A DNA stretch of 64,000 bases, taken from NCBI RefSeq assembly GCF_003334255.1, contig NZ_QOWU01000015.1. One strand, 5' to 3'. The notes under the pieces were generated by a model. The model worked only from the letters and a program-made list of their open reading frames with translations, was not told where the DNA came from and made no database searches. Origin of the DNA: Escherichia coli. GTDB taxonomy: Bacteria > Pseudomonadota > Gammaproteobacteria > Enterobacterales > Enterobacteriaceae. Of the stretch, positions 3,222-3,403 are shown one piece after another (the first letter of the stretch is position 1; each line of letters begins with the position of its first letter). The position numbers and the translations under genes are program-made.

Positions 3222-3403
3222 CAGCCGTTGCCTGATGCGACGCGTAATGCGTCTTATCAGGCCTACAGTGAACAGAACCGTAGGTCGGATAAGGCGTTCA
3301 CGCCGCATCCGACAGCCGTTGCCTGATGCGACGCGTAATGCGTCTTATCAGGCCTACAGTGTACAGAACCCCAGGGCGGATATGGCGTTCACGCCGCATC
3401 CGA
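3222..3403. repeat. Tandem duplicated REP/BIME unit (2 x 91 bp)
   Basis: Units 3222-3312 and 3313-3403 are near-identical. Each carries the palindromic REP cores gcctgatgcgacgcgtaatgcgtcttatcaggcctaca and cggataaggcgttcacgccgcatccg. Confidence 0.85.

Follow-up and report, generated by a model that had tools for sequence, protein, structure and literature searches.

Between trmJ and iscR, the window (the whole 64,000-nucleotide stretch of Escherichia coli DNA that was analysed) carries a short repeat array in which two 91-bp units stand head to tail over 182 bp, each made up of a z2 REP and an inverted y REP with a 13-nt linker between them. Judged by this sequence, it is a BIME-2-type array, an already known kind of element. 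As a whole, the locus is very probably explained by a BIME-2 array that has the generic role of REPs and that gains and loses units. The array is real but unsurprising: it is one of several hundred REP/BIME loci of E. coli, and it behaves as BIME-2 elements were described in the 1990s.

Tandem Repeats Finder (TRF) reported one tandem array in the window at 3221-3405 (period 91, 2.0 copies, 94% matches, no indels, score 335), and a separate repeat search of the window returned two copies of 91 nt, 3221-3311 and 3312-3402, that are 95% identical. The register of the array is arbitrary by one base, so that 3222-3403, as used in Table 1, is equivalent to 3221-3402. The initial annotation had described an exact tandem duplication of a 91-bp REP-containing unit between trmJ and iscR, with units that differ at a handful of positions. 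Both repeat searches and the z2 and y REPs bear out the unit, its duplication and its place, but the duplication is not exact, as units A and B are identical at 86 of 91 positions. The five differences (unit A/unit B, 3271/3362 A/T, 3280/3371 G/C, 3281/3372 T/C, 3285/3376 T/G and 3292/3383 A/T) all lie inside 22 nt that cover the linker together with the foot of the y REP; by a rough estimate, five random sites would cluster this closely with a chance of about 0.02. The units agree at each of their first 49 and their last 19 positions.

The array, in a spacer of 360 bp, directly follows the trmJ stop codon, and 178 bp separate its end from the iscR ORF; it is therefore extragenic. Its z2 REPs begin and end as GCCTGATGCGACGC...GCGTCTTATCAGGCCTAC (37 nt), and successive REPs are separated by 13 nt between CTAC and GTAG and by 7 nt between a y REP and the next z2 REP. 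The array is far beyond chance, and the two REP palindromes of each unit fold much better than shuffled sequences (z about -5 and -4.5). A reading as chance or artefact was set aside on the TRF score and on the presence of the array in hundreds of independent genomes. Two ORFs that overlap the array, at 3187-3441 (+) and 2688-3308 (-), were deemed spurious, as they run through the REP palindromes or antisense to trmJ.

Table 1. Features of the trmJ-iscR region, in window coordinates.
Feature	Position	Strand	Basis and remarks
trmJ CDS, tRNA Cm32/Um32 methyltransferase, 246 aa, stop TAA 3219-3221	2481-3221	+	ORF list; RefSeq annotation of matching E. coli genomes
BIME-2-type REP array, units A then B	3222-3403	+	TRF, repeat search, unit comparison; trmJ 3'UTR if transcribed
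Unit A	3222-3312	+	Unit comparison; occurs 1-3 times where an allele has several units; y REP canonical, with GTAG
z2 REP no. 1, 37 nt, GCCTGATGCGACGCGTAATGCGTCTTATCAGGCCTAC	3230-3266	+	Regex scan, fold, Rfam alignment to the naRNA4 Z2 hairpin
Linker, 13 nt, AGTGAACAGAACC, between z2 CTAC and y GTAG	3267-3279	+	Read from sequence; compare the BIME-2 short linker S (PMC3333891)
y REP no. 1, inverted, 34 nt; + strand GTAGGTCGGATAAGGCGTTCACGCCGCATCCGAC; GTAG at 3280-3283	3280-3313	-	Regex scan, fold
Two-hairpin y + z2 module across the unit junction	3283-3354	+	Rfam RF02564 (naRNA4) match
Unit B	3313-3403	+	Unit comparison, fold; always iscR-proximal; y REP degenerate (CCAG for GTAG, one stem pair lost)
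z2 REP no. 2, identical to no. 1	3321-3357	+	Regex scan
y REP no. 2, degenerate; + strand CCAGGGCGGATATGGCGTTCACGCCGCATCCGAC	3371-3404	-	Unit comparison, fold
Putative iscR promoter/operator region, outside the repeat	3448-3506	+	Putative site assignment; sequence conservation across 5,425 E. coli genomes and in 13 further species from 8 genera
iscR CDS, 162 aa	3582-4070	+	ORF list; RefSeq annotation of matching genomes

BIME-2 elements are built of z2 and y REPs that alternate in orientation, with a short linker and in tandem copies; they have 2-12 copies, are extragenic and near-identical within a locus, and vary in copy number between strains (PMC3333891, PMC1187871). The array described here has z2 and y REPs, alternating orientation with a short linker, tandem conserved copies, an extragenic position and a variable number of units. 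Nothing essential distinguishes it from BIME-2 elements in general, although it is short, with two units, and its last y REP lacks the GTAG tetranucleotide and one stem pair. K-12 MG1655 (NC_000913.3, spacer 2662132-2662582) has an array at the same locus, with the same flanks and the same unit types A and B, but with three units in the order A-A-B in a 451-bp spacer, compared to A-B in the window. According to PMC3333891, a substrate of the REP-associated transposase TnpA(REP)/RAYT has GTAG 5' of the REP foot and a stem that contains a mismatch bubble. Unit A shows both in its y REP, GTAG and an AA/GC bubble, while the y REP of unit B, with CCAG, fails the GTAG requirement; both z2 REPs have GTAG on the - strand. 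Mentions of iscR in PMC3333891 turned out to be ISCR insertion elements. Further REP palindromes occur elsewhere in the window, as a lone y-type REP at 10647-10680 (+) and as a y/z2-like inverted pair at 47652-47685 (+) and 47708-47744 (-), which looks like another BIME.

The individual REPs are predicted to fold into stable hairpins. The z2 hairpin (no. 1, 3230-3262) had a folding energy of -22.1 kcal/mol and the y hairpin of unit A -18.8 kcal/mol, compared to means near -9 to -10 kcal/mol for shuffled sequences, and the y hairpin of unit B reached only -14.9 kcal/mol (z -2.2). For the whole region, the comparison with shuffles gave z = -6.9. The minimum-free-energy structure of the full region contained a long-range helix between both z2 copies, which we treat as an equal-energy alternative to the local hairpins. 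Pairing was also counted over an alignment of 10 unit variants, all distinct and drawn from different lineages. In the z2 stem, 100% of cells were paired, with three pairs that change on one side only, all of them still standard or wobble pairs. The y stem was paired in 97% of cells, and one C-G pair was replaced by U-A in four of the 10 variants, with a U-G intermediate in one. This covariation, seen in ten related sequences, is only suggestive, and it could arise by templated conversion from other REP copies.

To count units across the species, 5,426 complete E. coli genomes were searched with allele-specific queries that included 150 bp of unique flank on each side, at E-value cut-offs strict enough that only full-length collinear matches pass. 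A single unit was the commonest state (2,629 genomes, 48%); two units, the window's allele, were found in 665 genomes, three in 662 (including K-12 MG1655), four in 14, and five or more in none of the 5,426. An unrelated element of about 121 bp occupied the same position in 1,432 genomes (26%), and 24 were unclassified. The expectation in the initial annotation that the copy number of this BIME varies between strains was thus confirmed, and the alternative that it named, a fixed BIME with the same arrangement in all E. coli, fails on the two-unit count. A 60-mer specific for unit A matched 1,416 genomes at 2,113 places (1-3 per genome, all chromosomal), in agreement with the census prediction of about 1,414 genomes and 2,050-2,100 places, which shows that the census is self-consistent. 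In these genomes the 60-mer search found the A-type segment at the trmJ-iscR locus only and gave no hint of a donor for unit A elsewhere at present.

Units are gained and lost over very short time scales. Among relatives that share at least 99.9% identity with the window over 25 kb, strain G6/7 has three units, G1/2 has one (B only) and cM8a has four, while JP538 has two, as inferred from its 25,000-base match span alone. As near-identical strains carry one, two, three or four units, turnover must be fast, and the census provides a quantified case of gain and loss of a 91-bp unit even at a local identity of at least 99.9%. Two units in tandem are an old layout, as it is shared by diverged lineages, in which the units are more divergent. 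In strain N96 the two units differ at many more positions, with GTAG in the first of them and CCAG in the other; S1-INA-02-B has a diverged first unit followed by B; and of the 665 genomes with two units, 52 belong to the band of 95-99% identity. The suggestion that the duplication is recent or homogenised therefore holds in part: changes in unit number are recent, and homogenisation with fast turnover is the better half of the suggestion, but the two-unit layout is not recent.

The pattern of unit numbers fits unequal recombination or replication slippage. Every multi-unit allele examined of the window's A/B unit type has the order A^(n-1)-B, and single-unit alleles of both types occur, with A in MLI104K2 and B in G1/2 and RM10410. 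Units could misalign in replication or recombination because of the sequence they share (49 and 19 nt of identity between A and B, the full 91 nt between two A units), and 91-bp units would be gained or lost as a result. If A-B recombined within the left 49 nt that its units share, A-A-B and a single B would arise, while a crossover in the 19-nt identical right part would yield a single A. TnpA(REP) is a possible contributor to these changes. The single unit of strain UID2309 combines a left half like the first unit of N96 with a right half like that of ST131, and such a hybrid is the expected product of recombination between units with deletion. From these comparisons, the array is best described as an old BIME-2, partly homogenised and still gaining and losing units.

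The 1,432 genomes with the unrelated element, which include O157:H7, B1-like strains and others, have it as a single copy with exactly the same boundaries as the array. It contains GTCCCCTCGCCCCTTCGGGGAGAGGGTTAGGGTGAGGGG and extends from the last trmJ codon up to ...CAACAGGTAC; trmJ is one codon shorter in this allele (KA* compared to KAE*). The element is a dispersed intergenic GC-rich palindromic repeat, found at a median of 17 places in each genome, and is presumably Box C-like. It thus resembles the BIME array in that both are GC-rich palindromic dispersed repeats in the same interval, although their sequences are unrelated.

Loci from other species were collected in one scan of the genome collection with a 23-nt iscR operator pattern, which returned 23 loci from genera other than Escherichia and Salmonella. 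The synteny of trmJ and iscR is conserved across Enterobacterales. In Buttiauxella, Cedecea, Pantoea, Mixta and one Trabulsiella strain, the spacer is 130-150 nt long and free of repeats, and the trmJ stop codon adjoins the IscR operators. Species of the Klebsiella oxytoca group have an element CCCTCTCCC...GGGAGAGGG...GGGTGAGGG at the same spot, and a second Trabulsiella strain and K. grimontii have REP-like palindromes there. The variety of palindromic repeats across species indicates that small palindromic repeats have landed repeatedly in the gap 3' of trmJ, and this counts against a conserved function specific to this locus. Elements similar to the replacement element of about 121 bp were also seen at this site in species of the Klebsiella oxytoca group.

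What might the array do? The most likely role is the generic one of REPs in the 3'UTR of trmJ, in which the array would block exonucleases and act as a leaky attenuator of read-through towards iscR. When trmJ is transcribed, four stable hairpins would lie in its 3'UTR, where they could block 3'-to-5' exonucleases and so stabilise the trmJ mRNA. The same hairpins may form a leaky, partly Rho-dependent attenuator that lowers read-through towards the iscR promoter and iscRSUA. REPs are known to define the protected 3' ends of Rho-terminated transcripts (PMC6061677). The first hairpin could have an additional effect, as its stem starts at 3230, leaving 8 nt after the trmJ stop codon, and it would thereby fall in a class reported to stall terminating ribosomes and lower translation. 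REPs no more than 15 nt from a stop codon are reported to stall ribosomes and to lower the amount of the upstream protein via tmRNA (Liang, Rudd and Deutscher 2015, as summarised in PMC12306157). The trmJ REP lies within this 15-nt limit and in its distance resembles stop-codon-proximal REPs such as the nrdAB REP.

The best functional analogy is REP325, a BIME-2 array between the tandem genes yjdM and yjdN that stabilises the upstream mRNA and attenuates read-through (bioRxiv 10.64898/2026.03.23.713779). Both arrays have two-hairpin y+z2 modules and follow the first gene of a tandem pair as part of its 3'UTR, but REP325 has six repeats (12 hairpins), compared to two units (four hairpins) here. 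In REP325, Rho dependence was seen only with the full array, and 2-4 hairpins were insufficient (bioRxiv 10.64898/2026.03.23.713779); the two-unit allele may therefore attenuate little. The alleles of G1/2, JP538, G6/7 and cM8a form a natural series that would be convenient for relating the dual terminator/stabiliser model of REPs to the number of hairpins. In the term-seq tables of MG1655 no RNA 3' end was listed in the trmJ-iscR spacer (PMC7815308), which is weak evidence, as identical repeats map ambiguously. The same data contain a very abundant 3' end 60 nt inside the trmJ ORF (K-12 2663263 (-), window about 2541), which has read counts of more than 200,000 and is not classed as Rho-dependent (PMC7815308). 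This end could mark a premature termination or processing site in the 5' region of trmJ.

The hairpins are not intrinsic terminators by sequence, since none of the four has a T run 3' of it to complete the combination of stem-loop and U run. A scan of 3000-3700 found no intrinsic terminator on the + strand between trmJ and iscR, and its sole match was on the - strand at 3560-3546.

A different view of the array is that it is selfish or neutral DNA in a permissive gap, with no effect in cis on trmJ or iscR, and that changes in unit number are neutral slippage. We regard this as possible, though doubtful. It would account for the 1,432 genomes in which the array is absent and an unrelated dispersed repeat is present instead, for the range of one to four units even among near-identical strains, and for the decay of the y REP in unit B. 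The repeat-free spacers of 130-150 nt and the different palindromic repeats of other species also suit an insertion hot spot. Moreover, the 26% of genomes without the array and the repeat-free spacers in other species show that any function is dispensable. Against neutrality, diverged variants have kept their hairpin pairing, with one compensatory double change among them; elsewhere, REP arrays that separate tandem genes have a measurable effect on the expression of their neighbours; and the first REP, 8 nt past the stop codon, is within the published effective range. We favour the generic role of REPs in the trmJ 3'UTR.

The position of the array relative to the iscR promoter bears on any wider role. 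We take the putative -35 and -10 elements of iscR to be TTGACC at 3478-3483 and CAGACT at 3501-3506; a promoter scan matched no consensus sigma-70 site. IscR sites A and B presumably lie at about 3448-3506, as placed by sequence conservation and after the sites of Giel et al. (2006/2013). The array, which ends at 3403/3404, is therefore just upstream of this promoter and operator region, as the initial annotation had it, at about 44 bp from the inferred IscR site A and about 75 bp from the putative -35. The further suggestion that the array could affect the stability of the iscR leader did not hold up, because an array upstream of the inferred promoter cannot belong to a leader made from it. 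Such an array could matter only for trmJ 3' ends and for read-through transcripts.

Across 5,425 genomes, an 81-bp promoter/operator segment is nearly invariant, while the array upstream of it varies in number or is absent. At 3495, the window has A, where 17 of 17 E. coli loci compared and 13 of 13 other Enterobacterales species have G (ACTCGGGAATGTCAGACT), and none of the 5,425 complete E. coli genomes matched window 3455-3535 exactly. This position presumably lies in the spacer between the putative -35 and -10 elements, in the right half of IscR type-1 site B. The G-to-A change is, on these comparisons, private to the window in an otherwise invariant putative operator, and could be either a real regulatory mutation, possibly with partial derepression of isc, or a sequencing error.

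Could the number of units matter for iscR? One idea is that unit number (0-4) is a fast-switching heritable dial that sets attenuation into iscRSUA, TrmJ output or both, and so gives closely related strains different set points for Fe-S cluster biogenesis or tRNA modification. This would be compatible with the A^(n-1)-B arrays, with the differences in unit number between near-identical strains and with the length dependence of attenuation in REP325, but we consider it improbable. As part of the same idea, amplification might be specific to unit A, since only its y REP keeps GTAG for TnpA(REP). However, the same pattern would follow from simple unequal recombination in the 49 identical nt on the left, so a transposase is not required.

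It is a little less probable still that the array acts as DNA on the iscR promoter, as a gyrase or cruciform site that alters supercoiling, with unit number tuning the Fe-S cluster genes. The short distances to IscR site A and the -35 would allow this, but the promoter/operator segment stays nearly invariant while the array varies or is absent, and the promoter works in other species in which the trmJ stop codon is directly beside the operators. We also know of no upstream activator site for the iscR promoter. BIME-2 arrays have been reported as targets that DNA gyrase binds and cleaves (Espeli and Boccard 1997, as cited in PMC12306157), which is in favour of an action at the DNA level. Overall, a specific role of the array in iscR regulation is neither needed nor indicated.

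The unit counts of single assemblies can be wrong, and the two units of the window might in principle be an assembly collapse of a three-unit array like that of K-12. Reads of up to 150 nt make it difficult to count identical A units, K-12 has A-A-B where the window has A-B, and assemblies of standard lab strains conflict. This is very improbable, however, since exactly two units are present in 665 independent complete genomes, the nearest relative, JP538, matches the window in one piece over a 25,000-base span, and the collection is dominated by complete genomes from long reads. Among the lab strains, BL21(DE3), Rosetta2, BL21-RIPL, Stbl4, XL1-Blue, XL10-Gold and TOP10, all from one submitter, have four units, while MG1655 and BW25113 have three and a derivative of J53 (K-12) has two. 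This disagreement reflects either drift of stocks at the locus or assembly errors in a 91-bp tandem repeat. The locus is a potential marker for fine-scale typing and also a caution about assembly quality.

Least probable of all is that the y+z2 module at the unit junction yields a small RNA like naRNA4 that binds HU and organises the nucleoid. The module matched Rfam RF02564 on the trmJ-sense strand with 72.2 bits, above the gathering score of 59.5, with an inter-hairpin linker 6 nt shorter than in the model. In the alignment to the naRNA4 consensus, the y REP corresponds to its Y hairpin and the z2 REP to its Z2 hairpin. There is one such module per unit junction, so that the number of matches is the unit number minus one (none in single-unit alleles, two in K-12 and three in cM8a). 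naRNA4 was originally claimed to be a discrete HU-binding RNA of about 77 nt from REP325, with a role in nucleoid compaction (PMC4550694). A 2026 preprint that shares an author with that study disputes this, as REP325 and naRNA4 did not measurably compact the nucleoid (bioRxiv 10.64898/2026.03.23.713779). The RF02564 model is in effect a generic BIME-2 junction with which any such junction scores, and the match is no evidence for a dedicated small RNA; the module is missing from the single-unit (48%) and non-BIME (26%) alleles. The naRNA4 match at this locus should therefore not be annotated as a specific small-RNA gene. Rfam also matched the iscR-iscS intergenic region at 4071-4180 (+), where the known iscR stability element (RF01517, iscRS) scored 138 bits against a gathering score of 40.
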